A stretch of 64,000 nt of DNA from a virus: the UHGV virus genome UHGV-1378516; one strand, 5' to 3'. The notes beneath the pieces were generated by a model. That model worked only from the letters and a program-made list of their open reading frames with translations. It searched no databases and was not told the DNA's origin. Of this stretch, positions 653 through 11,595 are shown piece after piece (the stretch's first letter is position 1; every line of letters begins with the position of its first letter). A program made the translations under genes and the position numbers.

Positions 653-877
653 TATGTTTTCTCCAAATAGTTAACCATGTTTCCCCTTAAAAAAGACGGC
701 ACAGAGACCGTCAAGGAGAAACCACAATGTACGTCAGAGACATACTGTATAAGTCTTCCTATAAAGTATAACTCTGTAAAAAAGCCCTGTCTAAAAATAC
801 TCTTCGGTAGCGAAAGGAAGAATACTTATAGCAGGGCATTATTATTATTTTAATTGAGAGAGAGTAAAATAACTTGG

Positions 878-950
878 AGAATCCGAAGGGACTCGAACCC
901 TTATAAACCTGTTTTGCAGACAGGCACATAGCCATTTCTGTCACGGATTC
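878..950 (-). tRNA. tRNA-Cys (anticodon GCA)
   Basis: Perfect 7-bp acceptor stem GAATCCG/CGGATTC, T-arm GGGTTCGAGTCCC, anticodon loop CTGCAAA. Confidence 0.7.
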
Positions 951-954
951 AAAT

Positions 955-1047
955 TGGAGGAAGATACCAGACTTGAACTGGTACACCGATTTCTCAGCTA
1001 CTGGCAGTTTAGCAAACTGCTCCCTTACCTTTTAGGGTTAATCTTCC
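955..1047 (-). tRNA. tRNA-Ser (anticodon GCT), type II, CCA encoded
   Basis: Acceptor GGAAGAT/ATCTTCC, T-arm ACCAGTTCAAGTCTGGT, anticodon stem GCAGT/ACTGC with loop TTGCTAA, long variable arm. Confidence 0.6.
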
Positions 1048-1049
1048 AT

Positions 1050-1784
1050 TTATTTCTGTAATACGTTCTTCATTTCTGGTGTTGCAATAGTGTCAATTAC
1101 ACCAGTTTTACAAGCATCATCAAACCAGTCTGGTAAGATACCTGCTAAGAACCCATTGATATTCGTTTTAAGGTACTCTGCAATAAGAGCAGCTTCTTCT
1201 TCAATCATCTGCACAACTTCATCTGCATAAGCTGTAATTTTTGAAATACCTTCATTAATCTTACTAACAGCTTGGTTAGCTAAATCAGAAATAGTATCAA
1301 GACCTTTGTCAATAGCGTCTTGTAAGTCACTTAATACATCATTAACACCGTCTAGTGCACTGTTAATCGTATCAATAGCTTTTTGACCATACTCTGTAGC
1401 AACACCCATAATACCACTAAATGGTGTACAACCAACTTGTTCACCTGCTGCACCCATAACATTAGAATAGCCTTTTGCTACCTGCATACGTGATGAGAAC
1501 TCATCAATGGACTTTTGACCGTAATCTGTCAGTGTTTTGGTAGTTGATGTAGTGCTTGTCAGACTCGTGGTAAAGCTGTTAAGCAGAACTGTTGTGAGTC
1601 CAGCAGCAACAAGCTTATCCTTTACTGTAGGGTCTGATACAGAGCTAATAGAGCTTACAAGTGATGTAGAGGCAGCTACGGTTCCGCCGAGAACTGCTGC
1701 ACCAGTAATAAGGGGGTTAGAAAACCCTTTACCAGTTTTTAAGAGATTGAAAATCTCCTTACCTTGTTCTGTCATCTCTTTCAT
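1050..1784 (-). CDS. hypothetical Ala/Thr/Ser-rich protein (start moved to internal ATG so it does not overlap tRNA-Phe)
   Basis: ORF 1050-1847 in track; ATG at 1782-1784 with AAAGGTG RBS; upstream 20 codons overlap a tRNA. Confidence 0.5.
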   Translation of the reverse strand: MKEMTEQGKEIFNLLKTGKGFSNPLITGAAVLGGTVAASTSLVSSISSVSDPTVKDKLVAAGLTTVLLNSFTTSLTSTTSTTKTLTDYGQKSIDEFSSRMQVAKGYSNVMGAAGEQVGCTPFSGIMGVATEYGQKAIDTINSALDGVNDVLSDLQDAIDKGLDTISDLANQAVSKINEGISKITAYADEVVQMIEEEAALIAEYLKTNINGFLAGILPDWFDDACKTGVIDTIATPEMKNVLQK

Positions 1785-1802
1785 TAAGCACCTTTGAAAT
1801 TG

Positions 1803-1877
1803 GTAGTCCAGTGGGATTTGAACCCTCTTCTCATGTTTTTCAGACACGCGCTTTAACCATATAAGCTACTTGGACTA
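1803..1877 (-). tRNA. tRNA-Phe (anticodon GAA)
   Basis: Acceptor TAGTCCA/TGGACTA, T-loop TTCAAAT, anticodon loop CTGAAAA. Confidence 0.65.
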
Positions 1878-1885
1878 TAAATTGG

Positions 1886-1958
1886 GGTGACCTACGGGAT
1901 TTGAACCCGTATAGACCATGTTCACAGCATGGGTCATTACCATTTATGATAAGGCCAC
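1886..1958 (-). tRNA. tRNA-His (anticodon GTG)
   Basis: Acceptor GTGGCCT/AGGTCAC, T-arm ACGGGTTCAAATCCCGT, anticodon stem CCATG/CATGG loop CTGTGAA. Confidence 0.7.
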
Positions 1959-1992
1959 ATTTAAGGACTCTCGTAAGAATCCTTAGAAGTGG

Positions 1993-2065
1993 CAGCGGCA
2001 TAAGGATTTGAACCTTAATAGGACAGCTTCAGAGACTGTTGCATTGCCAGTTATGCTATACCGCT
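1993..2065 (-). tRNA. tRNA-Gln (anticodon CTG)
   Basis: Acceptor AGCGGTA/TGCCGCT, T-arm TAAGGTTCAAATCCTTA, anticodon loop CTCTGAA. Confidence 0.6.
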
Positions 2066-2072
2066 AAATTTG

Positions 2073-2142
2073 GTACTCCATATCGGATTCGAACCGATAC
2101 ATAACACAGATTTTAAGTCTGGCCTCTCTGCCAATTGGAGTA
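2073..2142 (-). tRNA. tRNA-like gene, short (about 68-70 nt), anticodon loop CTTAAAA (UAA, nominally Leu); non-canonical D-arm
   Basis: T-arm ATCGGTTCGAATCCGAT and acceptor pairing present; D-arm does not fold canonically. Confidence 0.4.
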
Positions 2143-2154
2143 ATGGAGCATTGG

Positions 2155-2227
2155 CGGGGGATGTTGGAATTGAACCAACTTCTTCGATTTCAAAGACCGA
2201 GGTTTTAACCTTGTAAACTAATCCCCT
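2155..2227 (-). tRNA. tRNA-Gln (anticodon TTG)
   Basis: T-arm GTTGGTTCAATTCCAAC, acceptor AGGGGAT/ATCCCCC (1-72 mismatch), anticodon loop CTTTGAA. Confidence 0.55.
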
Positions 2228-2235
2228 TTAAATCT

Positions 2236-2793
2236 TTACTTTCTTAGTGGATGAATAAAGAATGCCAACATAACTCTTTCCCTTGAGAATGCTCTTTCTT
2301 CTGGGACAACGCTTTTAAGTTTCCACCCAACATAAATTCTCCAGTAAAATTGTTTACCAAAGATTTTGATTGATGGCACAAAAGCGAATAACCCCCAAGC
2401 ATTACTGTTCCACATTAGGAGATAACCAGTTTGATTATCTTCAGGGTTAGAACTTACGTTGATATTACCTTTCCACTTAGTAACGTCTTTTACATCTCTT
2501 CCTAACACATGGTAAGAGAAGTTATAAGCTTTGTTTCTCCAGAGCCATCCAACTCTCTGCATGTAGACACCAAGCTTACCAATCTTTCTAATCTTAGCCC
2601 ATCGTTTGATATGACCTGCATCACCATCAATTGGGTTGTCATAAGTCTCCATCCATCTGAACCCGAAAGGCAAGTGTCCTTTCTTCTCACTGTAGAATGG
2701 AACTACAAAAGGTGCTAAGATAACTGCTAAGATTGCTGCAAATGGCTCTAACAAAGCTAAGAAAATCCATGAAGCATACTTTAAGTATCTCAT
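2236..2793 (-). CDS. hypothetical membrane protein embedded in tRNA cluster
   Basis: ORF track 185 aa; hydrophobic N-terminus IFLALLEPFAAILAVILAPFVVPF. Confidence 0.5.
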   Translation of the reverse strand: MRYLKYASWIFLALLEPFAAILAVILAPFVVPFYSEKKGHLPFGFRWMETYDNPIDGDAGHIKRWAKIRKIGKLGVYMQRVGWLWRNKAYNFSYHVLGRDVKDVTKWKGNINVSSNPEDNQTGYLLMWNSNAWGLFAFVPSIKIFGKQFYWRIYVGWKLKSVVPEERAFSRERVMLAFFIHPLRK

Positions 2794-3032
2794 TGTCTAA
2801 TCCTCGTAAGGAGGTAAATGTTATTATTAGTTTCTAAACCTTCTGGTAAAACTGTCTCAAAAATAACACTCTTCAGATGTCTACCACCAAAACAATCACG
2901 TATAAATCTTTCTACTCTAGCGGGGTCACATAAGTATCCCACTTTTAAGAAAATGTGGTGTTCAACACCAATGACCCTGACAAACTCAATACTCTCACAG
3001 TTTTCATGTTCAACTACTGTTAATGTTTGCAT
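2790..3032 (-). CDS. hypothetical protein (80 aa)
   Basis: ORF track; 4-nt overlap with downstream gene suggests translational coupling. Confidence 0.4.
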   Translation of the reverse strand: MQTLTVVEHENCESIEFVRVIGVEHHIFLKVGYLCDPARVERFIRDCFGGRHLKSVIFETVLPEGLETNNNIYLLTRIRQ

Positions 3033-3052
3033 AGTATCACCTTTTTATCTGG

Positions 3053-3125
3053 CGCAGGATAAGGGATTCGAACCCCTATTAACAGCTTCGTAGACTGTTG
3101 CTCTTTCCATTTGAACTAATCCTGC
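3053..3125 (-). tRNA. tRNA-Arg (anticodon ACG)
   Basis: Perfect acceptor GCAGGAT/ATCCTGC, T-loop TTCGAAT, anticodon loop CTACGAA. Confidence 0.7.
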
Positions 3126-3133
3126 AAAATTGG

Positions 3134-3208
3134 TGTTCCAAGACGGATTCGAACCGTCACTAATACAAGGTTTGAGCTTGCATCCTCTGCCAATTGGGAT
3201 ACTGGAAC
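3134..3208 (-). tRNA. tRNA with anticodon CAA (nominally Leu) but short type-I architecture
   Basis: Acceptor GTTCCAG/TTGGAAC, T-arm GACGGTTCGAATCCGTC, anticodon loop CTCAAAC, discriminator A; no long variable arm. Confidence 0.5.
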
Positions 3209-3212
3209 ATGG

Positions 3213-3284
3213 TACTCACTAAAGGACTTGAACCTTTTTCTTCATCTTGTAAGGGTGATGTTTTACCATATAAACTAAGCGAGT
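3213..3284 (-). tRNA. tRNA-Val (anticodon TAC)
   Basis: Acceptor ACTCGCT/AGTGAGT (one GU), T-arm AAAGGTTCAAGTCCTTT, anticodon loop CTTACAA. Confidence 0.55.
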
Positions 3285-3288
3285 ATGA

Positions 3289-3376
3289 AAGAGGTCTGGA
3301 GTTGTGCCGCTAACTCAACTCCGTGGAATTTGTTACGGTCTTCAGTTGACTCAAAGCGGTCTTTCACTTGACCTCT
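3289..3376 (-). ncRNA. tRNA-sized structured RNA candidate without canonical T-loop
   Basis: 7-bp terminal pairing AGAGGTC/GACCTCT spaced 88 nt apart, internal 7-bp hairpin GGAGTTG...CAACTCC; no TTCRANT T-loop. Confidence 0.25.
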
Positions 3377-3383
3377 GAATTGG

Positions 3384-3456
3384 TGCTCCCACAAGGACTC
3401 GAACCCTGATAAGTTGCTTACAAGGCAACCGTAATAACCAATTATACGATAGGAGC
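3384..3456 (-). tRNA. tRNA-Thr (anticodon TGT)
   Basis: Acceptor GCTCCTA/TGGGAGC, T-arm CAGGGTTCGAGTCCTTG, anticodon stem GTTGC/GCAAC loop CTTGTAA. Confidence 0.65.
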
Positions 3457-3466
3457 ATTAATTTGG

Positions 3467-3538
3467 AGCATCCAGAGGGAATCGAACCCTCAACCTCAGT
3501 TTGGAAGACTGTAATTTTCCCGTTTAAACTATGGATGC
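3467..3538 (-). tRNA. tRNA-Gly (anticodon TCC)
   Basis: Perfect acceptor GCATCCA/TGGATGC, T-arm GAGGGTTCGATTCCCTC, anticodon loop CTTCCAA. Confidence 0.65.
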
Positions 3539-3547
3539 ACTAATTGG

Positions 3548-3620
3548 TGGAGTCACCGAGAATTGAACTCGGTTCCCAAGTTTGCAAAACTCGAATTTTA
3601 ACCATATAAACTATGACCCC
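3548..3620 (-). tRNA. tRNA-Ala (anticodon TGC)
   Basis: Acceptor GGGGTCA/TGACTCC with G3-U70, T-arm CCGAGTTCAATTCTCGG, anticodon loop TTTGCAA. Confidence 0.7.
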
Positions 3621-3629
3621 AATGTCTGG

Positions 3630-3702
3630 TACAGGTGGAGGGAATTGAACCCATCGTCTTACTGATTAAGAGTCAGCCGCATAACCATTTTGCTACACCT
3701 GC
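3630..3702 (-). tRNA. tRNA-Lys (anticodon CTT)
   Basis: Acceptor GCAGGTG/CACCTGT, T-loop TTCAATT, anticodon stem GCTGA/TCAGT loop CTCTTAA. Confidence 0.55.
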
Positions 3703-3712
3703 ATTAATTTGG

Positions 3713-3788
3713 TAGGAGACAAGGGATTCGAACCCTCAAGCATCTCGTTCTAAGCGAGATAGGTCTACCAAGTTGCCGTCAATCTCCC
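3713..3788 (-). tRNA. tRNA with anticodon TAG (nominally Leu), type-I length
   Basis: Acceptor GGGAGAT/GTCTCCT (two GU), T-arm GAGGGTTCGAATCCCTT, perfectly palindromic anticodon arm ATCTCG-CTTAGAA-CGAGAT. Confidence 0.5.
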
Positions 3789-4044
3789 ATTAAATCTTTT
3801 TAGAGAACTTCTAAGAACCTGAGCAACAAGGTTCCACAACAAGCGACTAATAACCTTAGAAGCCCTCTAAAAAGACCTAAATAGGTCTTTGCATAGTCTT
3901 GTTTAATCCGGTGACTAGAACCTTTGGAGAGCTTGATATTATCTCTTCTCCGTGACACCTACTAGGTGCTTTGACAGTGTACGACAATACACGAGGGATA
4001 AACCGACAATGCGAACAAGCATGGACGGAGTAAATCTTATTAGG

Positions 4045-4132
4045 CGGTAAGTAAAGGAGTCGAACCCTCACCGTATCTCTACAGTGGCAACAGTTTTCAA
4101 GACTGTTTGGCTGCCATTAGCCGCTACCTACC
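4045..4132 (-). tRNA. tRNA-Ser (anticodon TGA), type II
   Basis: Acceptor GGTAGGT/ACTTACC, T-loop TTCGACT, anticodon stem ACAGT/ACTGT loop CTTGAAA, long variable arm. Confidence 0.6.
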
Positions 4133-4148
4133 CCTAATAAGACTTTGG

Positions 4149-4228
4149 CATGGGACGGAGGAGTTGAACCCCTTTGAAACGGTTTTGGAGGCCGTTGCTC
4201 ATGCCTTAGAGTCTTAACATCGTCCCAT
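4149..4228 (-). tRNA. tRNA-like gene (80 nt), anticodon undetermined (possible 9-nt loop containing CCA)
   Basis: Perfect acceptor ATGGGAC/GTCCCAT and T-arm AGGGGTTCAACTCCTCC; interior does not fold into canonical D/anticodon arms. Confidence 0.4.
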
Positions 4229-4373
4229 ATTATAATTCGAAGCTTACCCTGTTATCTCAACACTGTCAAGCTTCTTCTCAGATTATTTACATGTTCTGGA
4301 AAACATGAGATACAGACCACCTCCCTACAGGAAGACCCGCTAAGGCCGTCTAAGTAATCTGCTAACTATTTGG

Positions 4374-4447
4374 TACACCCTACAGGATTCGAACCTGTAA
4401 CTAACGATTTAGAAGACCGTTGCTCTATCCAATTGAACTAAGGGTGC
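4374..4447 (-). tRNA. tRNA-Arg (anticodon TCT)
   Basis: Acceptor GCACCCT/AGGGTGT, D-arm GTTCAATTGGATAGAGC, T-loop TTCGAAT, anticodon loop CTTCTAA. Confidence 0.65.
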
Positions 4448-4696
4448 ATTATCTTTAAAGACTCTCTTAGAAAGCCCTTAAAGATGCCCACCTTATTAAT
4501 CATACCGTGGGCGAGTACGCCAAATTCTTTGATGAGGGATTGGAAGACCTCACTGGTGTTTAGCCTATCAAGCTACTGCCAGAAAAACATTGTCGTTTGC
4601 ATTTATTTTAAATTTGCAAAATAGACGCTACGCAACGAAAACTAAGGTTACTATAAAGTAGTCACATCTCAATGTCAACAACTTTATTGAAATTGG

Positions 4697-4769
4697 TACT
4701 GGTAGGTGGAATCGAACCACCGATGTTCCCTTATCAGGGGAGTGTTATAACCTTCTTAACTATACCAGC
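4697..4769 (-). tRNA. tRNA-Ile (anticodon GAT)
   Basis: Acceptor GCTGGTA/TACCAGT, T-arm GGTGGTTCGATTCCACC, anticodon loop CTGATAA. Confidence 0.65.
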
Positions 4770-4773
4770 TTGG

Positions 4774-4847
4774 AGGTTCAGATGGGAATCGAACCCACAT
4801 TCATAGGGCTTATGAGACCCTTGCATTACCTTATCTGCGACTGAACC
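4774..4847 (-). tRNA. tRNA-Met (anticodon CAT; initiator-like GGG/CCC in anticodon stem)
   Basis: Perfect acceptor GGTTCAG/CTGAACC, T-loop TTCGATT, anticodon stem AGGGT/GCCCT loop CTCATAA. Confidence 0.6.
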
Positions 4848-4854
4848 ATATTGG

Positions 4855-4927
4855 TAGAAGTGGAGGGATTCGAACCCATCGCCTGTCAGATTAAAAGTCT
4901 GCCGCATCACCATTCTGCTACACTTCC
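4855..4927 (-). tRNA. tRNA-Lys (anticodon TTT)
   Basis: Acceptor GGAAGTG/CACTTCT, T-loop TTCGAAT, anticodon loop CTTTTAA. Confidence 0.6.
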
Positions 4928-5126
4928 ATTAAATTATCTTTGTAGATAAGCTACCCAGACTTGCTTAAGGTCTGTAGCGATGTGCCTTTTGGGTTTAAAT
5001 CTAGAATTTACCCATTCACCCTTTGTGGTCGCATACTCACAGGTAAGCTTAATAACTTATCTACAAAGATAATTACCAGACCGTTGTTTATCATCTTAAG
5101 TGCTACCATTACACCAACTCGACATC

Positions 5127-5172
5127 TGCCGAGTGAAGGAATCGAACCTTCGCCTTTTCTTTACCGGAGAAA
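5127..5172 (-). pseudogene. tRNA remnant: 3' half (T-arm + acceptor 3' strand) plus an anticodon-arm-like hairpin (loop CCGGTAA), no matching 5' acceptor strand
   Basis: T-arm GAAGGTTCGATTCCTTC present; no complementary 5' acceptor strand within 100 nt. Confidence 0.3.
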
Positions 5173-5358
5173 TAGATTGTTTAAGTTTTGCTGTAAACGG
5201 TCTTCTGTAAATTTGTTGAGCCAGACCAAGTTTTAAATTTTCAAAATTAAATTGGCTTGAAATTTCATACGTTCTTGCTGTATTTGGTCTTCTGCTCCTT
5301 TAAAGAATACTCGTAAGAACTCTTTAAGGGAGGGGCTAAATAGCCCTCTCAAAATTGG

Positions 5359-5433
5359 CGGTTACGAAGGGATTTGAACCCTCATCATCTCCCGTGACAG
5401 GGGAGTATTTTAACCAGATTAAACTACATAACC
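5359..5433 (-). tRNA. tRNA-Asp (anticodon GTC)
   Basis: Acceptor GGTTATG/CGTAACC, T-loop TTCAAAT, anticodon stem CTCCC/GGGAG loop CTGTCAC. Confidence 0.65.
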
Positions 5434-5441
5434 TTTATTGG

Positions 5442-5526
5442 TGTGCCGTGTAGGAGTCGAACCTACCGAGTCTCAATGACAAGGGATTTACAGTCCCCAC
5501 CGCTACCATCTACGGGATAACGACAC
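5442..5526 (-). tRNA. tRNA-Tyr (anticodon GTA), type II
   Basis: Acceptor GTGTCGT/ACGGCAC, T-arm GTAGGTTCGACTCCTAC, anticodon loop CTGTAAA, long variable arm. Confidence 0.6.
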
Positions 5527-5598
5527 ATTTAATTTCTATTCAGGCTAAGGACTTGCACCTTACAAATCGGTGAGCAATCGCTTCTCTCCTAAATTTGG

Positions 5599-5672
5599 CG
5601 GTTAGTCAGGGATTCGAACCCTGTGCCATTCGCTTAACAGGCGACCGCACATACCTTATGTGCTTCCTAACC
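5599..5672 (-). tRNA. tRNA-Asn (anticodon GTT)
   Basis: T-arm CAGGGTTCGAATCCCTG, acceptor GGTTAGG/ACTAACC, anticodon loop CTGTTAA. Confidence 0.6.
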
Positions 5673-5759
5673 ATGTTTAGTATTACCAGACCGTATCTTT
5701 CAATTTTTTCCGCTAAAAATTTAATAAATATTGCTGTAAACGGTCTTCTGTAAATTTGG

Positions 5760-5833
5760 AGGCGGGTGCAGGAGTCGAACCTGCCGATACCATGCTAATG
5801 AGACATGTGAGACGCCCTTTCTCTATACCCGCA
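5760..5833 (-). tRNA. tRNA-Met (anticodon CAT), 1-72 mismatch
   Basis: T-arm GCAGGTTCGACTCCTGC, acceptor TGCGGGT/ACCCGCC, anticodon stem CATGT/GCATG loop CTCATTA. Confidence 0.55.
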
Positions 5834-5927
5834 ATTCTTAATGACCAGACCAAATCTCTTCTTTGTCCGATTTACCTTCAGATGAATAAGATTAAGTTTG
5901 CTGTAATTGGTCTTCTGTCAAAACTGG

Positions 5928-6002
5928 CGTTCCAGAAGGGATTTGAACCCTCAAATATCCACTTTGAAAGAGTGGTGACTTTACCATTTTGTCTACTGGA
6001 AC
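5928..6002 (-). tRNA. tRNA-Glu (anticodon TTC)
   Basis: Perfect acceptor GTTCCAG/CTGGAAC, T-loop TTCAAAT, anticodon stem CCACT/AGTGG loop CTTTCAA. Confidence 0.65.
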
Positions 6003-6012
6003 ATTAATTTGG

Positions 6013-6086
6013 TCTCTGTTGGAGGACTTGAACCTCCGGCCTTACCGCCCCAAACGGAACGCTCTACCAAGCTGAGCTAAACAGAG
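6013..6086 (-). tRNA. tRNA-Pro (anticodon TGG)
   Basis: Perfect acceptor CTCTGTT/AACAGAG, canonical D-arm GCTCAGCTTGGTAGAGC, T-arm GGAGGTTCAAGTCCTCC, anticodon loop TTTGGGG. Confidence 0.65.
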
Positions 6087-6251
6087 ATAAACTTTTCAAA
6101 CTCTATGTAACCACTTTAACATTATTTTTTAGTGGTTGTCAAGAACTTTTTTAAAATATTCTTCAGTATCTTAGAAAAGCTCTCATTTCGTTTCTATGTA
6201 GAACATATTAAAGGGTATTAAACACATTGTCAATACCCTTTTTAAAACTTT

Positions 6252-7667
6252 TTACCAGATGTAACGGTCAATCATTACTGCTTTGAGCATTACGCTGATT
6301 GGGTCAAACTTCTCACCACCAAGCAGAGCTTTTAAAGTGGCTGGAGAGAAACCAGATACCATTGCTACACCGTTATCCTTAACGGACACTTCGCAAGTAC
6401 CATTACGGTTTGCTAAGTACCAGAATACCAGTTGTGGCATCTCATATCCAGCTTTTTTGTACTTGCTCTGAATTGCTTCAAAGTTTGTACGACCGTTAGC
6501 TCCATCAACCTGATTGAACTCCATATCAGAGAATATGATAAGCTTACTTGGCATATCTTTCTGAGTCAAGTTGTTTCTCTTACCTATTTCAAGAATGCGG
6601 TCAAAAGCTGCTTGTAAGTTAGTTGAACCATATTCAACATGACGCATTACCTGACGATGACGGTTTCGTAAATCACCACTCAGTTCGATGAAGTGAGGGT
6701 TTGTTGAATAAACCATCAACTCATTCTTAAAGCAACCTGTATTGCGTTCTGCTACATACAAGGCAAGTGATACACCAATATCAAGGGCGGTGATTGAACC
6801 AAGATTCACCCAAGACATTGAGCTTGAAACATCAGTCATACACAAGATGTTTTCACCTTCTGCCATCCAGTTTGGTAGTGCTTTCCACTGCTCATTGGCA
6901 ACATCTGCATTACCATGCTTGATAGACTTAATCACATCGTATGGGTAAACAGCACCAGCATTAATCTTAGCCTCACCCTTTGATAAGGACTCAATGTAAG
7001 CTTTGTAGCGTTCTCCATCTTTACGGTTAAACAGTTTTTGGTAACGTGCAGCAGCAAGTGAAGGAATCTTACTGTAGTCAATCTTACCAAACTCATTAGC
7101 AGAGATTTTTTGCTCAACTGTATCAGATAGTGCAGACAACAGTGTGCGGTACTCTTTCTCACTCAAGTTGGCAAACTTGCAGAAACGTTTTACAAACTGC
7201 TTATGACGTGGTTTGACTCGTGGTAACCACTTAGCTGCCAAACCTGCTGTTGCAGGGTCTAGTAATGCTGCTTCTAAATGTTTGAAGGCATCTGTCTCGA
7301 AACGAGTACCTACGAAGATTTTGAAGTCATCAAAACGGCCAAGTTCTGCAATCTTATCCATAATACGAAGAACCTGCGTAGACTCTAAAACTTTGTCTTC
7401 AATTGCTTGAAGCAAAACAGTTCTGAAGGCTTTACGCTCACCCATACCTTCTCGTACATCTCGCATATGAAGCAAAATACGAACTGCAACATCAACATCC
7501 TCACGCAAAGCTTTGTAGAACAGGTCTGGTAAGATTTCTACGTTGCTACGGCTTGAACCAGCAGCTTTGTAAAAGTCTACAAGAGCAGACATTGATGAAG
7601 TATGGTTTACAGCACCATTTTCAGTTCGACCTGCATGAAGGTGCGCATGTTTAAATAATTCGCTCAT
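6252..7667 (-). CDS. von Willebrand factor A (vWA) domain protein, DUF2828-like
   Basis: 471-aa ORF; MIDAS-type DxSxS motif (MTDVSSSM) followed by a vWA-like C-terminal region. Confidence 0.5.
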   Translation of the reverse strand: MSELFKHAHLHAGRTENGAVNHTSSMSALVDFYKAAGSSRSNVEILPDLFYKALREDVDVAVRILLHMRDVREGMGERKAFRTVLLQAIEDKVLESTQVLRIMDKIAELGRFDDFKIFVGTRFETDAFKHLEAALLDPATAGLAAKWLPRVKPRHKQFVKRFCKFANLSEKEYRTLLSALSDTVEQKISANEFGKIDYSKIPSLAAARYQKLFNRKDGERYKAYIESLSKGEAKINAGAVYPYDVIKSIKHGNADVANEQWKALPNWMAEGENILCMTDVSSSMSWVNLGSITALDIGVSLALYVAERNTGCFKNELMVYSTNPHFIELSGDLRNRHRQVMRHVEYGSTNLQAAFDRILEIGKRNNLTQKDMPSKLIIFSDMEFNQVDGANGRTNFEAIQSKYKKAGYEMPQLVFWYLANRNGTCEVSVKDNGVAMVSGFSPATLKALLGGEKFDPISVMLKAVMIDRYIW

Positions 7668-9749: not shown

Positions 9750-11131
9750 TTAAAGCAAAGACTTACCCAGACTTCAAAGAGTTTGTGAAGGGCTTCATTG
9801 CAAATGTAAAGGCTGGTAAGAGATATGATTTTAGAACATATCAAGAGGCTATTTTACCACTCACCTATAGTTCATATTGGCCTGAAGCTGATATTGCAGA
9901 AGTTGAGGAGTTTGACTACAAACCAGACTACAAAGTCCCATTTAGCGATGAGTTGCTTTACAGCGTTGGTGCTCAAATGAGAACTTCTGACTTCTTCATG
10001 GACTTACAATATACAATTATCAATGGTAAAGACGTTGATACAGTTTATTGTGAATGGCTGGCAAGAGTTAAACCGTTCTCAATGTTGAATGCTAAGTTGA
10101 AGGATGCTATCAAGCCACCAGCAATCACTCAGCAACCAACCAATCAAACAGTAAATGAAGGTGGTACACTTAACCTAAGCGTTATTGCAACTAATGCCAC
10201 AGGATATCAATGGAAAAAAGATGGTGAGGATATCACTAGCGCCACATCTGCAACCTACACAAAACAGTCTGTAGTACCTTCTGATGCAGGTTCATACACT
10301 TGCGTTGTATCTGGAGAGGCTGGAACAAGCGTTACCTCAGATGCGGCAACAGTTACTGTTAACGCACTACCTGTGATTACACAGCAACCTTCTAGCCAGA
10401 CCATCAATGAGGGTGGAAACATCAGCTTGGAAGTGACTGCAACGGGTGCAACTGGTTACCAGTGGAAGAAAGATGGCTCTGACATTCCTTCGGCTACAGA
10501 GGCTACCTATAGCAAGTCTGGTGCTCTGCCAGCAGATGCAGGTTCATACACTTGCGTCGTAACAGGGGCAGGTGGTTCTGTTACTTCTAGCCCTGCAACT
10601 GTCACGGTAAATGCTTTACCAGTTATTACCAAGCAGCCAACCAATCAGGTAGTTAATGAGGGTAGCTCTTTGACACTGAGTGTTGAGGCGACAGGTGCGG
10701 AAGGTTACCAGTGGAAAAAGGACGATGTGAACATCCCTAGTGCAACTGGTGCAACTTACACGAAAGCTAACGCAGTTCCTGACGATGCTGGTTCATATAC
10801 CTGTGTAGTTACTGGTGCTGGTGGCACAACAGTCACATCTAATGCTGCAACGGTTACTGTGAATGCACTTCCTGTAATCACTCAACAGCCAATCAATCAA
10901 GAAATCACTGAAGGTGAGACCTTAACGCTGAATGTTGTGGCAACAGGTGCAACAGGCTATCAGTGGAAGAAGGGTGAGGAAAACATCCCAGACGCAACTA
11001 CTGCAACTTACACCAAAGAAGGTGCAACCACTGCTGATTCAGGAAGCTACACTTGTGTAGTGACTGGCGCAGGTGGCTCTGTAACATCTAATGCGGCAAC
11101 AGTTACAGTTAACCCAGCAGGGGAGGCATAA
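9746..11131 (+). CDS. Ig-like (I-set/Big-like) repeat protein, 4 tandem ~82-aa domains; Hoc-like decoration or adhesin candidate
   Basis: Repeated unit P(V/A)ITQQPxNQxxNEGxxLxLxVxATGATGYQWKKDGxDIxSATxATYTKxxxxxxDAGSYTCVVTGAGGxxTSxxATVTVN. Confidence 0.65.
   Translation: MIKAKTYPDFKEFVKGFIANVKAGKRYDFRTYQEAILPLTYSSYWPEADIAEVEEFDYKPDYKVPFSDELLYSVGAQMRTSDFFMDLQYTIINGKDVDTVYCEWLARVKPFSMLNAKLKDAIKPPAITQQPTNQTVNEGGTLNLSVIATNATGYQWKKDGEDITSATSATYTKQSVVPSDAGSYTCVVSGEAGTSVTSDAATVTVNALPVITQQPSSQTINEGGNISLEVTATGATGYQWKKDGSDIPSATEATYSKSGALPADAGSYTCVVTGAGGSVTSSPATVTVNALPVITKQPTNQVVNEGSSLTLSVEATGAEGYQWKKDDVNIPSATGATYTKANAVPDDAGSYTCVVTGAGGTTVTSNAATVTVNALPVITQQPINQEITEGETLTLNVVATGATGYQWKKGEENIPDATTATYTKEGATTADSGSYTCVVTGAGGSVTSNAATVTVNPAGEA
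10123..11106 (+). repeat. 4 tandem ~246-bp coding repeats (Ig-like domains)
   Basis: Units begin near 10123, 10369, 10615, 10861. Confidence 0.7.
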
Positions 11132-11595
11132 TGCAACTCTCACAGAAAGGTTTAGAAGCTATTAAGTTCTTTGAAGGTCTGAAGCTAGAGGCTTACGAAG
11201 ATTCTGCTGGAATCCCAACAATTGGGTATGGGACTATCCGTATTGCTGGTAAGCCTGTTAAGATGGGTATGAGGATTACCGCTGAACAAGCTGAACAGTA
11301 TCTTCTCGCAGATGTTGAAAAGTTCGTTGCAGCAGTGAACAAAGCCGTCAAGGTTCCAACTTCTCAGAATGAGTTTGACGCACTTGTAAGTGAAACATAC
11401 AACATTGGCATCACAGCCATGCAGGACTCTACATTTATCAAGCGCCACAACGATGGTAATAAGGTAGGTTGTGCAGAAGCTATGCAGTGGTGGAACAAGG
11501 TTACAGTCAAAGGTAAGAAGGTCACTTCAAACGGCCTGAAAAACAGACGTAGAATGGAAGCTGACATTTATCTTGACAGTGTATACCCAAAGTAA
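11131..11595 (+). CDS. endolysin, T4-lysozyme-like (GH24) muramidase
   Basis: N-terminal signature EGLKLEAYEDSAGIPTIGYGT matching catalytic Glu/Asp/Thr region of T4 lysozyme; 154 aa. Confidence 0.8.
   Translation: MQLSQKGLEAIKFFEGLKLEAYEDSAGIPTIGYGTIRIAGKPVKMGMRITAEQAEQYLLADVEKFVAAVNKAVKVPTSQNEFDALVSETYNIGITAMQDSTFIKRHNDGNKVGCAEAMQWWNKVTVKGKKVTSNGLKNRRRMEADIYLDSVYPK

Follow-up and report, generated by a model that had tools for sequence, protein, structure and literature searches.

The locus studied here raises the question of what an island of phage tRNA genes encodes besides tRNAs. It lies in UHGV virus genome UHGV-1378516, of which we analyzed a stretch of 64,000 nucleotides (the window), and occupies the minus strand from 875 to 6086, downstream of a gene for a 471-aa protein. 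In a DNA-level comparison, the 5.7-kb region shares 98.6% identity with Felixounavirus AN17P8 and 94–98% with over 200 Felix O1-like phages whose hosts are Escherichia, Salmonella and Shigella, which identifies it as the tRNA island of a Felix O1-like phage (Felixounavirus). The tRNA cluster as such is already known from relatives: E. coli O157 typing phage 1 and wV8 carry the same cluster as annotation in RefSeq, lying between the large terminase gene and the gene for a 471-aa "RNA-binding protein". An initial annotation of the window had described a large minus-strand cluster of about 30 tRNA genes with embedded coding sequences (CDSs) and several non-canonical elements. The cluster stands, as ARAGORN calls exactly 26 tRNA genes, all on the minus strand within 875–6086. 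The count is recast here as 26 tRNAs, one tRNA-Trp-like gene, four Y-like RNAs and one other structured element.

We consider it likely that the island comprises 26 working tRNA genes, an odd tRNA-Trp-like gene and four Y-like RNAs, all on one strand and downstream of a Ro60-like gene. With about even confidence, we further propose that the Y-like RNAs belong to an unrecognized Y-RNA-like family, here called CAGCAA-stem RNAs, some members of which carry permuted tRNA mimics. These RNAs would be the cognate partners of the DUF2828-type Ro60-like protein, in a viral Ro-type ribonucleoprotein that manipulates host tRNA/RNA surveillance or defense.

Four predicted Y-like RNAs lie among the tRNA genes

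A 19-nt motif, AGAAGACCnnnUACAGCAA, occurs in four exact copies on the minus strand, compared with 0.79 expected, and each copy is followed 60–120 nt downstream by nnnGGUCUGG. The four corresponding elements, Ya to Yd, are located 330–1180 nt downstream of the Ro60-like CDS and on the same strand. Each folds into an outer 4-bp stem, a 3x1 internal loop (AGA/G) and a 7-bp helix, followed by UUACAGCAA. Ya (5842–5920, minus strand; UGAC-AGA-AGACCAA-UUA-CAGCAA ... UUGGUCU-G-GUCA) fills the spacer between tRNA-Glu and tRNA-Met, and Yb (5683–5753, minus strand; UUAC-AGA-AGACCGU-UUA-CAGCAA ... ACGGUCU-G-GUAA) fills that between tRNA-Met and tRNA-Asn. Yc lies at 5218–5297 on the minus strand (GAGC-AGA-AGACCAA-AUA-CAGCAA ... 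UUGGUCU-G-GCUC). A covariance model of the family, R1, matches only these three in the 64-kb window, with 42.9 bits for Ya (E = 1e-5), 50.9 bits for Yb (E = 2e-7) and 33.1 bits for Yc (E = 0.0016). Common to the four paralogues are an invariant helix base (AG..CU), the bulged G and the CAGCAA motif. The outer stem covaries between paralogues (UGAC/GUCA, UUAC/GUAA and GAGC/GCUC, with UUGC/GCAA in phage SUSP2), and so do the inner three pairs of the helix (CAA/UUG, CGU/ACG).

The fourth element, Yd (5073–5210, minus strand, 138 nt), has the same closing module around an internal permuted tRNA-like domain, and its minimum free energy (MFE) fold has a four-way interior. Along the minus strand, this interior begins with a "V" or anticodon-arm-like hairpin (5156–5172; UUUCU-CCGGUAA-AGAAA, 5 bp with a 7-nt loop), read from the alignment to the Rfam tRNA model. 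There follow a T arm found by both folding and Rfam (5135–5151; GAAGG-UUCGAUU-CCUUC), a closed acceptor-like hairpin of 7 bp (5117–5134; ACUCGGC-AGAU-GUCGAGU) and a D arm (5100–5114; GUGU-AAUGGUA-GCAC) preceded by UG as positions 8–9 and evident from the fold and its variants. Across phages, we found 15 sequence variants of Yd. The T and D arms are nearly invariant among them (two variants have one base change each in the T arm), and the acceptor hairpin covaries, occurring as three unrelated, fully paired sequences: that of the window, ACACGU/GCGUGU in SUSP2 and Sf16, and ACCCUUC/GAAGGGU in Moogle and L074 (L numbers denote loci in our comparison). By its sequence and fold, the interior of Yd is a circularly permuted tRNA-like module, composed of a T arm, a tetraloop-closed acceptor hairpin and a D arm.

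This structure bears on 5127–5172, which had been read as a 3' half-tRNA remnant and possible processing intermediate. The T arm with a 3' acceptor strand is real, and Yd gives a partial match of 22 bits to the Rfam tRNA model. However, the supposed remnant is the T arm plus half of the closed acceptor hairpin within Yd, and three shorter paralogues lie nearby. Searches against Rfam 15 (the window; a 201-nt stretch at E ≤ 10; ten related loci at the gathering score) returned only tRNA, group I intron and chance matches. A recurrent U-rich/A-rich hairpin of 5 bp with a 7-nt loop within the elements was also considered and rejected as not general (8 of 71).

The adjacent gene encodes a protein with a predicted Ro60 fold

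The CDS directly upstream of the island (6252–7667, minus strand, 471 aa) matches Pfam DUF2828 and DUF7788/vWA, and PHROG 850, annotated as "RNA-binding protein". An AlphaFold2 model of the product, built with 41 homologues, has a pLDDT of 88.4 and a pTM of 0.88. When this model was compared with the PDB by Foldseek, the top 12 matches were all Ro60, Rsr or phage Ro60 (E 4e-9 to 4e-7, TM ≤ 0.65), and isolated vWA domains ranked far lower. Only Ro60 structures matched over the full length (2i91, 1yvp, 2nvo, 9l5y, 9nfa), representing Xenopus Ro60, Deinococcus Rsr, Thermus phage phiLo Ro60 and human Ro60; the phiLo structures 9kop and 9l5y are both among the top matches. The MIDAS (metal ion-dependent adhesion site) residues D279, S281, S283, T349 and D381 (DxSxS..T..D) are invariant. 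The modeled protein folds as Ro60 does, with a HEAT-repeat ring and a C-terminal vWA domain with MIDAS. At the sequence level, a phmmer search of the protein against the PDB gave no match, and the Pfam TROVE domain is absent, with DUF2828 and DUF7788 in its place.

Homologues of the protein are found in at least 710 phage records with hosts of many phyla, including Felix O1-, P100/A511-, KVP40-, Campylobacter- and mycobacteriophage LeBron (Bronvirus)-type phages. For phage Bas63, gp130 has been reported as a Ro60 structural homologue that counters the Ppl defense (10.1101/2024.10.10.617714).

It should also be noted that RNA ligase genes lie near the Ro-like gene in two phages, Listeria phage LMLPA3 (RtcB-type RNA ligase, L157 5306–6455) and Aeromonas phage LAh_6 (RNA ligase 2, L007 11070–11993), echoing the bacterial rsr-yrlBA-rtcBA operon. 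A group I intron and two tmRNA genes were observed in IMG/VR contigs with a Ro-like gene (L095 10696–10922, L100 1257–1707, L105 10822–11176).

The RNA motif accompanies the protein gene across distant phages

A DNA-level search with the Y region returned only Felixounavirus-like phages and unrelated tRNA matches; distant loci were reached through protein homologues, not DNA similarity. From IMG/VR, we sampled 75 loci whose proteins are 39–48% identical to that of the window. A strict descriptor of the element gave 64 matches on the strand of the gene, compared with 1 on the other strand and 0.8 in shuffled sequence. None of the matches lies within the gene and most are at most a few hundred nt away, with 43 of the 75 loci having one within 1.5 kb. 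The IMG/VR elements contain 52 distinct helix sequences. In a test that uses sequence only, the exact reverse complement was found downstream at 58 of 115 motif sites, as opposed to 0–2 in controls and 0 of 16 on the opposite strand. Double changes affect six of the seven helix pairs in a 38-sequence alignment, in which G12–C79 is invariant; slid controls were 32–44% paired. The sequence conserved across loci is A-AG(N5)-NNN-CAGCAA.

Searches with R1 gave 60 significant matches in 0.9 Mb, all 60 on the strand of the gene, and the same was true of 32 of 32 matches in contigs of bacterial genomes and metagenome-assembled genomes. R1 matches lie beside the gene in Listeria phage LMLPA3 (two copies), Staphylococcus phage S-CoN_Ph13, Campylobacter phage F352, mycobacteriophage LeBron and Vibrio phage phi-Grn1. 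By manual reading, Yersinia phage P778, whose protein is 53% identical to that of the window, has at least three elements with the helices GGACUGU/ACAGUCC, GGAUUC/GAAUCC and GGACUC/GAGUCC; these helices depart in sequence from those of the window yet stay complementary, U(A/U)CAGCAA is retained, and a T arm is present in one of the elements. Manual reading of Aeromonas phage LAh_6, which belongs to a different genus and whose protein is 43% identical, likewise revealed some eight copies in tandem immediately upstream of the gene. About half of the distant loci are without any tRNA genes. Therefore, the RNA follows the protein and not the tRNAs.

Resemblance to tRNA recurs in these distant elements. 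A canonical T arm is present in 9 of 30 long elements, several of which repeat the T, closed acceptor and D order with unrelated sequences. The complete order of V, T, closed acceptor and D-type domain seen in Yd is also present in L151, L123 and L091.

Two individual loci are described here for the record. In the IMG/VR locus L119, a CAGCAA-stem element (4730–4838) surrounds a tRNA-Thr-like sequence that is not permuted, has a shortened acceptor stem and scores 52.9 bits with the Rfam tRNA model; ARAGORN reports this element as an ordinary tRNA-Thr. In S-CoN_Ph13 (L161), an annotated hypothetical CDS of 29 aa (3971–4060) coincides with a significant R1 match (3974–4057) and, from this overlap, is probably a mis-called open reading frame (ORF). 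A scan of IMG/VR with the exact Felix motif gave many single chance matches in unrelated contigs, which were discarded. Within the literature searched, we found no paper linking DUF2828 to RNA, no Felix O1 small-RNA transcriptomics and no description of this pairing of protein and RNA.

Three tRNA-Leu genes are without the long variable arm

The three tRNA-Leu genes of the island, all on the minus strand, had been noted as short, type-I genes without the long variable arm expected of bacterial tRNA-Leu, and ARAGORN agrees. It folds tRNA-Leu(UAA) (2071–2149; Rfam 47.5 bits), tRNA-Leu(CAA) (3131–3208; Rfam 44 bits) and tRNA-Leu(UAG) (3710–3788; Rfam 30.5 bits) as class-I tRNAs with A73 and variable loops of 7, 5 and 5 nt, respectively. 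No variable-arm stem-loop of at least 10 nt is present in any of the three, the loops being without a stem, and a standard type-II fold was not obtained. The genes are 78–79 nt long with CCA and have 3-bp D stems and 11-nt D loops, as in class-II tRNAs. The D stem of tRNA-Leu(UAG) is weak, and its anticodon stem varies among relatives.

The E. coli leucyl-tRNA synthetase (LeuRS) requires A73, A15:U48, G18G19 and A20a, the long arm and the anticodon being dispensable, and a truncated tRNA-Leu without the variable arm is still charged by this enzyme (PMC9976931). All of these determinants are present in the three short tRNAs. Their D loops, AAUUGGCAGA or AACUUGGUAGA (AAUUGGYAGA), supply A14, A15, G18G19 and A20a, and U48 is directly 5' of the T stem. 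Because every known requirement of E. coli LeuRS is kept, the three genes probably encode functional tRNAs that have secondarily lost the arm and are charged with leucine, supporting the suggestion, made when they were first noted, that they are unusual functional tRNAs.

According to a review, the long arm is found on tRNA-Leu everywhere except in animal mitochondria (PMC9976931). The class-I tRNA-Leu of animal mitochondria and the minimal E. coli tRNA-Leu likewise accept leucine without a long arm, A73 and the tertiary core of the D and T loops being sufficient for LeuRS (PMC9976931). Unlike the mitochondrial tRNAs, those of the window are phage genes for the bacterial cytoplasm. Short tRNA-Leu genes are also present in Yersinia phage P778, an 88-kb IMG/VR relative (L081) and a KVP40-like Vibrio phage; the tRNA-Leu in the stretch of T5 that we examined is 85 nt long and belongs to class II. 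No description of a phage class-I tRNA-Leu was found in the literature searched. A phage tRNA-Leu without the long arm contradicts the textbook view that restricts such tRNAs to animal mitochondria, and these genes are ready natural substrates for studying recognition by LeuRS.

A tRNA-Trp-like gene and other structured elements

Two further elements had been singled out for their perfect terminal pairing. The one at 4149–4228 does have this pairing and a 9-nt anticodon loop, and with its CCA it extends to 4146–4228 (minus strand), a conserved and covarying tRNA-like gene that is recognizable from sequence and fold out to P778. The gene has a 7-bp acceptor stem starting with A1–U72, G73, an encoded CCA and the anticodon CCA; bacterial (E. 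coli) tRNA-Trp is determined by G73, A1–U72 and the CCA anticodon (PMC9976931). The anticodon loop is alternatively a 7-nt loop closed by a C.A mismatch, and the anticodon arm aligns with that of E. coli tRNA-Trp (loop CUCCAAA) if C31.A39 is taken as a mismatch. The T arm has one A.C mismatch. The core is non-standard, with a 10-nt connector as opposed to 2 nt, a D stem of 3 bp as opposed to 4 bp, and C.A at 31–39 (C.C in P778). The homologues from Moogle, IMG/VR contigs and P778 span genera, and two of their stems differ by compensatory changes: the anticodon stem (AACGG/CCGUU, GUAAG/CUUAC, GUAGG/CCUAC) and the D-like 3-bp stem (from CUC/GAG to CAC/GUG). ARAGORN does not call the gene at thresholds of 90% or 80%, and Rfam gives only a tRNA-Sec match of 23 bits (E = 0.57). 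At a threshold of 70%, ARAGORN produced an implausible, forced fold that was set aside. Relatives annotate the gene as a pseudo "tRNA-OTHER". Judged by its covariation, the structure of the gene is under selection, and we interpret it as a putative non-canonical tRNA-Trp.

The second of these elements, at 3289–3376 on the minus strand, has the terminal pairing attributed to it (7 bp) and a fold z-score of -3.8, but it is not tRNA-like, with no match to R1, Rfam or ARAGORN at 90% and 80% thresholds. Its sequence hardly differs among 16 variants, the hairpin GGAGUUG/CAACUCC having one compensatory change, and includes GAAGACCGU, in which the Y 5' motif is partially repeated. Directly 3' of Yd is an element of approximately 143 nt (4932–5074, minus strand) with a near-perfect closing stem of about 24 bp. 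Its MFE is -49.2 kcal/mol (z = -5.65), and none of 200 shuffled sequences is as stable. From this predicted fold, the element looks like an RNase III substrate or other structured RNA.

Canonical tRNA genes and annotated flanks

The anticodons listed in the initial annotation are exactly those called by ARAGORN. Besides the three tRNA-Leu genes, the calls are tRNA-Cys(GCA) (875–950), tRNA-Ser(GCU) (955–1047), tRNA-Phe(GAA) (1801–1876), tRNA-His(GUG) (1883–1958), tRNA-Gln(CUG) (1990–2065), tRNA-Gln(UUG) (2152–2227), tRNA-Arg(ACG) (3050–3125), tRNA-Val(UAC) (3210–3284), tRNA-Thr(UGU) (3381–3456), tRNA-Gly(UCC) (3464–3538), tRNA-Ala(UGC) (3545–3620), tRNA-Lys(CUU) (3627–3702), tRNA-Ser(UGA) (4043–4132), tRNA-Arg(UCU) (4371–4447), tRNA-Ile(GAU) (4694–4769), tRNA-Met(CAU) (4771–4847), tRNA-Lys(UUU) (4852–4927), tRNA-Asp(GUC) (5356–5433), class-II tRNA-Tyr(GUA) (5439–5526), tRNA-Asn(GUU) (5596–5672), tRNA-Met(CAU) (5757–5833), tRNA-Glu(UUC) (5925–6002) and tRNA-Pro(UGG) (6010–6086), all on the minus strand. 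Rfam model RF00005 recovers 24 of the 26 at or above its gathering score of 29 bits, with tRNA-Ser(UGA) at 31.1 bits. Of the other two, tRNA-Tyr is captured by the related tRNA-Sec model (29.6 bits), and the tRNA-Met at 5757–5833 has no Rfam match even at E ≤ 10. In this tRNA-Met, U1 and C72 are mismatched and an additional nucleotide precedes the D stem; this tRNA could be initiator-like or of the Ile2 type (lysidine). CCA is encoded by 25 of the 26 genes, the exception being tRNA-Ser(UGA), which ends in CCU. Relaxing ARAGORN to 90% and 80% thresholds revealed no further credible gene on the minus strand. Together the 26 tRNAs span 19 amino acids, and tryptophan is the only one missing; the Trp-like gene, as a 27th, would supply this 20th amino acid.

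The embedded CDSs that had been noted within the cluster are real ORFs, all on the minus strand. They encode 244 aa of family DUF7217 (1050–1784; Pfam and PHROGs, annotated in relatives), 185 aa of family DUF7338 (2236–2793; Pfam and PHROGs) and 80 aa of PHROG 14202 (2790–3032). A scan with consensus sequences alone placed two sigma-70-like promoters between the Ro-like gene and tRNA-Pro (6233–6205 and 6142–6113, within 6113–6233), another with 11 of 12 matches upstream of tRNA-Ile (4650–4678), and a terminator-like hairpin with a U tract 3' of the last tRNA (695–712), all on the minus strand. The scan found 16 promoter-like sites in the region, with 15.1 expected from shuffled sequence, so there is no excess of such sites.

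Several side observations concern the tRNA genes and their spacers. Hairpins with similar loops (UUCUUACGAG or CUAAGAG) recur between tRNAs at approximately 1965–1990, 3800–3885, 4455–4485 and 5300–5345 on the minus strand, and also at approximately 10720–10760 of L003; they may be processing or termination signals. In Yersinia phage P778 (L003, approximately 11005–11150), a tRNA-like 5' half, GCGGGUGUAGUUUACGUUGGUAAAAAC, and 3' half, GACGAGGGUUCGAUUCCCUCCACCUGC, lie about 70 nt apart and may represent an intron-containing or split tRNA. In eight IMG/VR loci (L083, L084, L087, L089, L100, L101, L102 and L104), ARAGORN reports a "tRNA-Ile(UAU)" of 90–95 nt, an unusual length for Ile; these genes mostly adjoin a tRNA-Ser (UGA; CGA in L104).

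Alternative explanations for the non-canonical elements

From the sequences, folds, covariation, protein fold and gene linkage described above, we infer how the Y-like RNAs would be expressed, processed, bound and used. Early sigma-70-type promoters would drive transcription of the island as polycistronic precursors. Since Ya and Yb fill whole spacers between tRNAs, RNase P and 3'-end processing of the neighboring tRNAs would release the Y-like RNAs. The conserved closing module would dock on the Ro60-like ring protein, and the variable module would recruit, or mimic a substrate of, tRNA-handling or RNA-decay/repair enzymes.

A number of observations weigh against this proposal. The protein has no detectable sequence kinship with Ro60, as a profile search against the PDB reached only E = 0.5 and in the vWA part only. 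The motif of the window RNAs, AG..CU/G plus CAGCAA, differs from the known Ro-binding motifs of Y RNAs, which are GNCGAAN0-1G in bacteria and GGUCCGA in animals, and no Rfam family other than tRNA matches the Y-like RNAs. The MFE z-scores of single Y elements are modest (-1.1 to -2.3), and Yd shows no evident Levitt 15–48 pair. For alignment A2, the percentage of paired positions is a circular measure, as the sequences in it were chosen by a pairing descriptor. The Trp-like gene fails all tRNA detectors, and a 10-nt connector is unknown in functional tRNAs. Finally, gp130 alone, whether moved into T7 or expressed from a plasmid, counters Ppl without phage RNAs (10.1101/2024.10.10.617714). As gp130 alone protects T7, the RNAs are therefore not required for anti-Ppl activity, unless host RNAs substitute. 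The Y-like RNAs may serve another role, such as the surveillance or repair of RNA or tRNA.

The CAGCAA-stem elements could instead act in cis on the transcript of the Ro-like gene, as autoregulatory operators, stabilizers or terminators, and not be free trans-acting RNAs. Consistent with such a role, a lone element is found in many distant loci either 25–60 nt beyond the stop codon or immediately ahead of the start codon, and in Vibrio phi-Grn1 and Aeromonas LAh_6 an element extends into the annotated start region. However, the copies in the window lie at their distance of 330–1180 nt beyond two promoter-like sites and several tRNAs, tandem arrays of up to eight copies exist, and the stems are AU-rich without U tracts. 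Some copies also hold complete tRNA-like domains, which would be superfluous for a terminator or operator, and we consider a purely cis-acting role unlikely. Very unlikely, in our view, is that the non-canonical elements consist of tRNA pseudogenes in decay and hairpins of the spacers, serving at most as RNase III/E/P processing sites. The location of the elements in inter-tRNA spacers, the tRNA-derived arms of Yd, the "tRNA-OTHER" pseudogene label of 4146–4228 in relatives and the long RNase III-like stem adjoining Yd would all fit this explanation. It does not account for the presence of the same motif beside the Ro-like gene in the half or so of distant loci without tRNA genes, for stems kept by compensatory changes, or for the independent recurrence of the permuted T, closed acceptor and D order in unrelated sequences. 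Nor would pseudogenes be expected to keep CAGCAA unchanged in phages whose hosts are Gram-positive, Gram-negative and actinobacterial.

The initial annotation had raised the idea that the unusual elements are substitutes or decoys relevant to host defenses that target tRNAs. Applied to the short Leu tRNAs, the Trp-like gene and the tRNA mimic, this idea draws on a known concept, that of phage tRNAs that resist anticodon nucleases. The short Leu tRNAs are kept in Felixounavirus, P778, the 88-kb IMG/VR relative and KVP40-like Vibrio phages, and the neighboring Ro-like protein is a proven anti-defense factor in Bas63. Nevertheless, no specific nuclease is linked to tRNA-Leu or tRNA-Trp here, the predicted target of Ppl is DNA, and gp130 is active without the RNAs. 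The tRNAs of Bas63 are mostly non-essential on the hosts tested (10.1101/2024.10.10.617714). We regard evasion of this kind as a possible but rather unlikely explanation, one that overlaps the proposed Ro-type ribonucleoprotein instead of replacing it. The Ro60-like gene directly upstream, not considered in the initial annotation, provides a better-grounded context than the decoy idea.

Should the Y-like RNAs indeed be partners of the Ro60-like protein, annotation would need correction in over 200 Felixounavirus records, whose spacers are predicted to hold genes. Hundreds of phages, therapeutic and model phages among them, conserve the Ro60-like DUF2828 protein, and no RNA partner has been named for it so far. 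A defined, searchable RNA motif and a covariance model make the question of its partner directly testable.

Comparison with known Ro60/Y RNA and phage RNA systems

Small non-tRNA RNAs among phage tRNA genes have precedents. The tRNA region of T4 encodes the stable small RNAs species 1 and species 2 among its tRNA genes. The T5 tRNA region has non-tRNA stable RNAs among its tRNA genes, a placement like that of the predicted small RNAs of the window, according to the T5 annotation (AY692264; L242 4288–7087), which lists six: RNAI, RNAIII, RNA1, RNA2H, RNAIV and rna2. RNA1 contains a D arm like that of tRNA-Leu and a T arm. The T5 small RNAs were considered as family members and rejected, as none matches R1.

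Phage-encoded Ro60-type systems are also known. Thermus phage phiLo resembles the window in having a phage-encoded protein of Ro60 fold with small stem-bulge-stem RNAs adjoining its gene, and its Ro60 and Yrl1/Yrl2 RNAs are proposed to hijack the host polynucleotide phosphorylase (PMC12135203). In contrast to the window family, which has another motif and a far wider distribution among phages, phiLo has a recognizable Ro60 homologue and RNAs with a CGAA motif. Bas63 gp130 belongs to the same genus as the window CDS and has the same position directly upstream of tRNA genes, and is presumably its orthologue on the basis of genus and position. The authors of the PhageMaP study named no RNA, and speculated that some annotated tRNAs are Y RNAs (10.1101/2024.10.10.617714). 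Unlike those, the candidates described here lie in unannotated spacers and not among annotated tRNAs.

The bacterial YrlA RNAs, which function with Rsr/Ro60, share several properties with the RNAs of the window. They are encoded no more than a few kb from the gene for the ring protein, share its strand and are often present as multiple copies (PMC4201824). The ends of YrlA pair into a conserved stem, as do the predicted ends of the window RNAs (a covarying 7-bp helix, bulged G and outer stem). In both systems, at least one RNA copy holds a tRNA-like domain ordered V, T, closed acceptor stem-loop and D, in which the T and D arms are invariant and the acceptor stem varies while its pairing is kept by covariation (PMC4201824). 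The phages listed by Chen et al. 2014 were chosen through TROVE annotation (PMC4201824). The Y-like RNAs known so far from phages accompany Ro60 genes with TROVE annotation. The partner of YrlA is TROVE/Ro60, whereas that of the window RNAs would be a DUF2828/DUF7788 protein that is Ro60-like in fold only. Since the motif differs, no Rfam family matches and the protein resembles Ro60 only in its fold, membership in the Ro60/Y RNA family is not established. By this comparison, the layout, gene linkage, multiplicity and tRNA mimicry of the window system are nevertheless those of Ro60/Y RNA systems, especially YrlA, and would extend the Ro/Y-RNA paradigm with tRNA mimicry to a second protein family related to the first in structure only.

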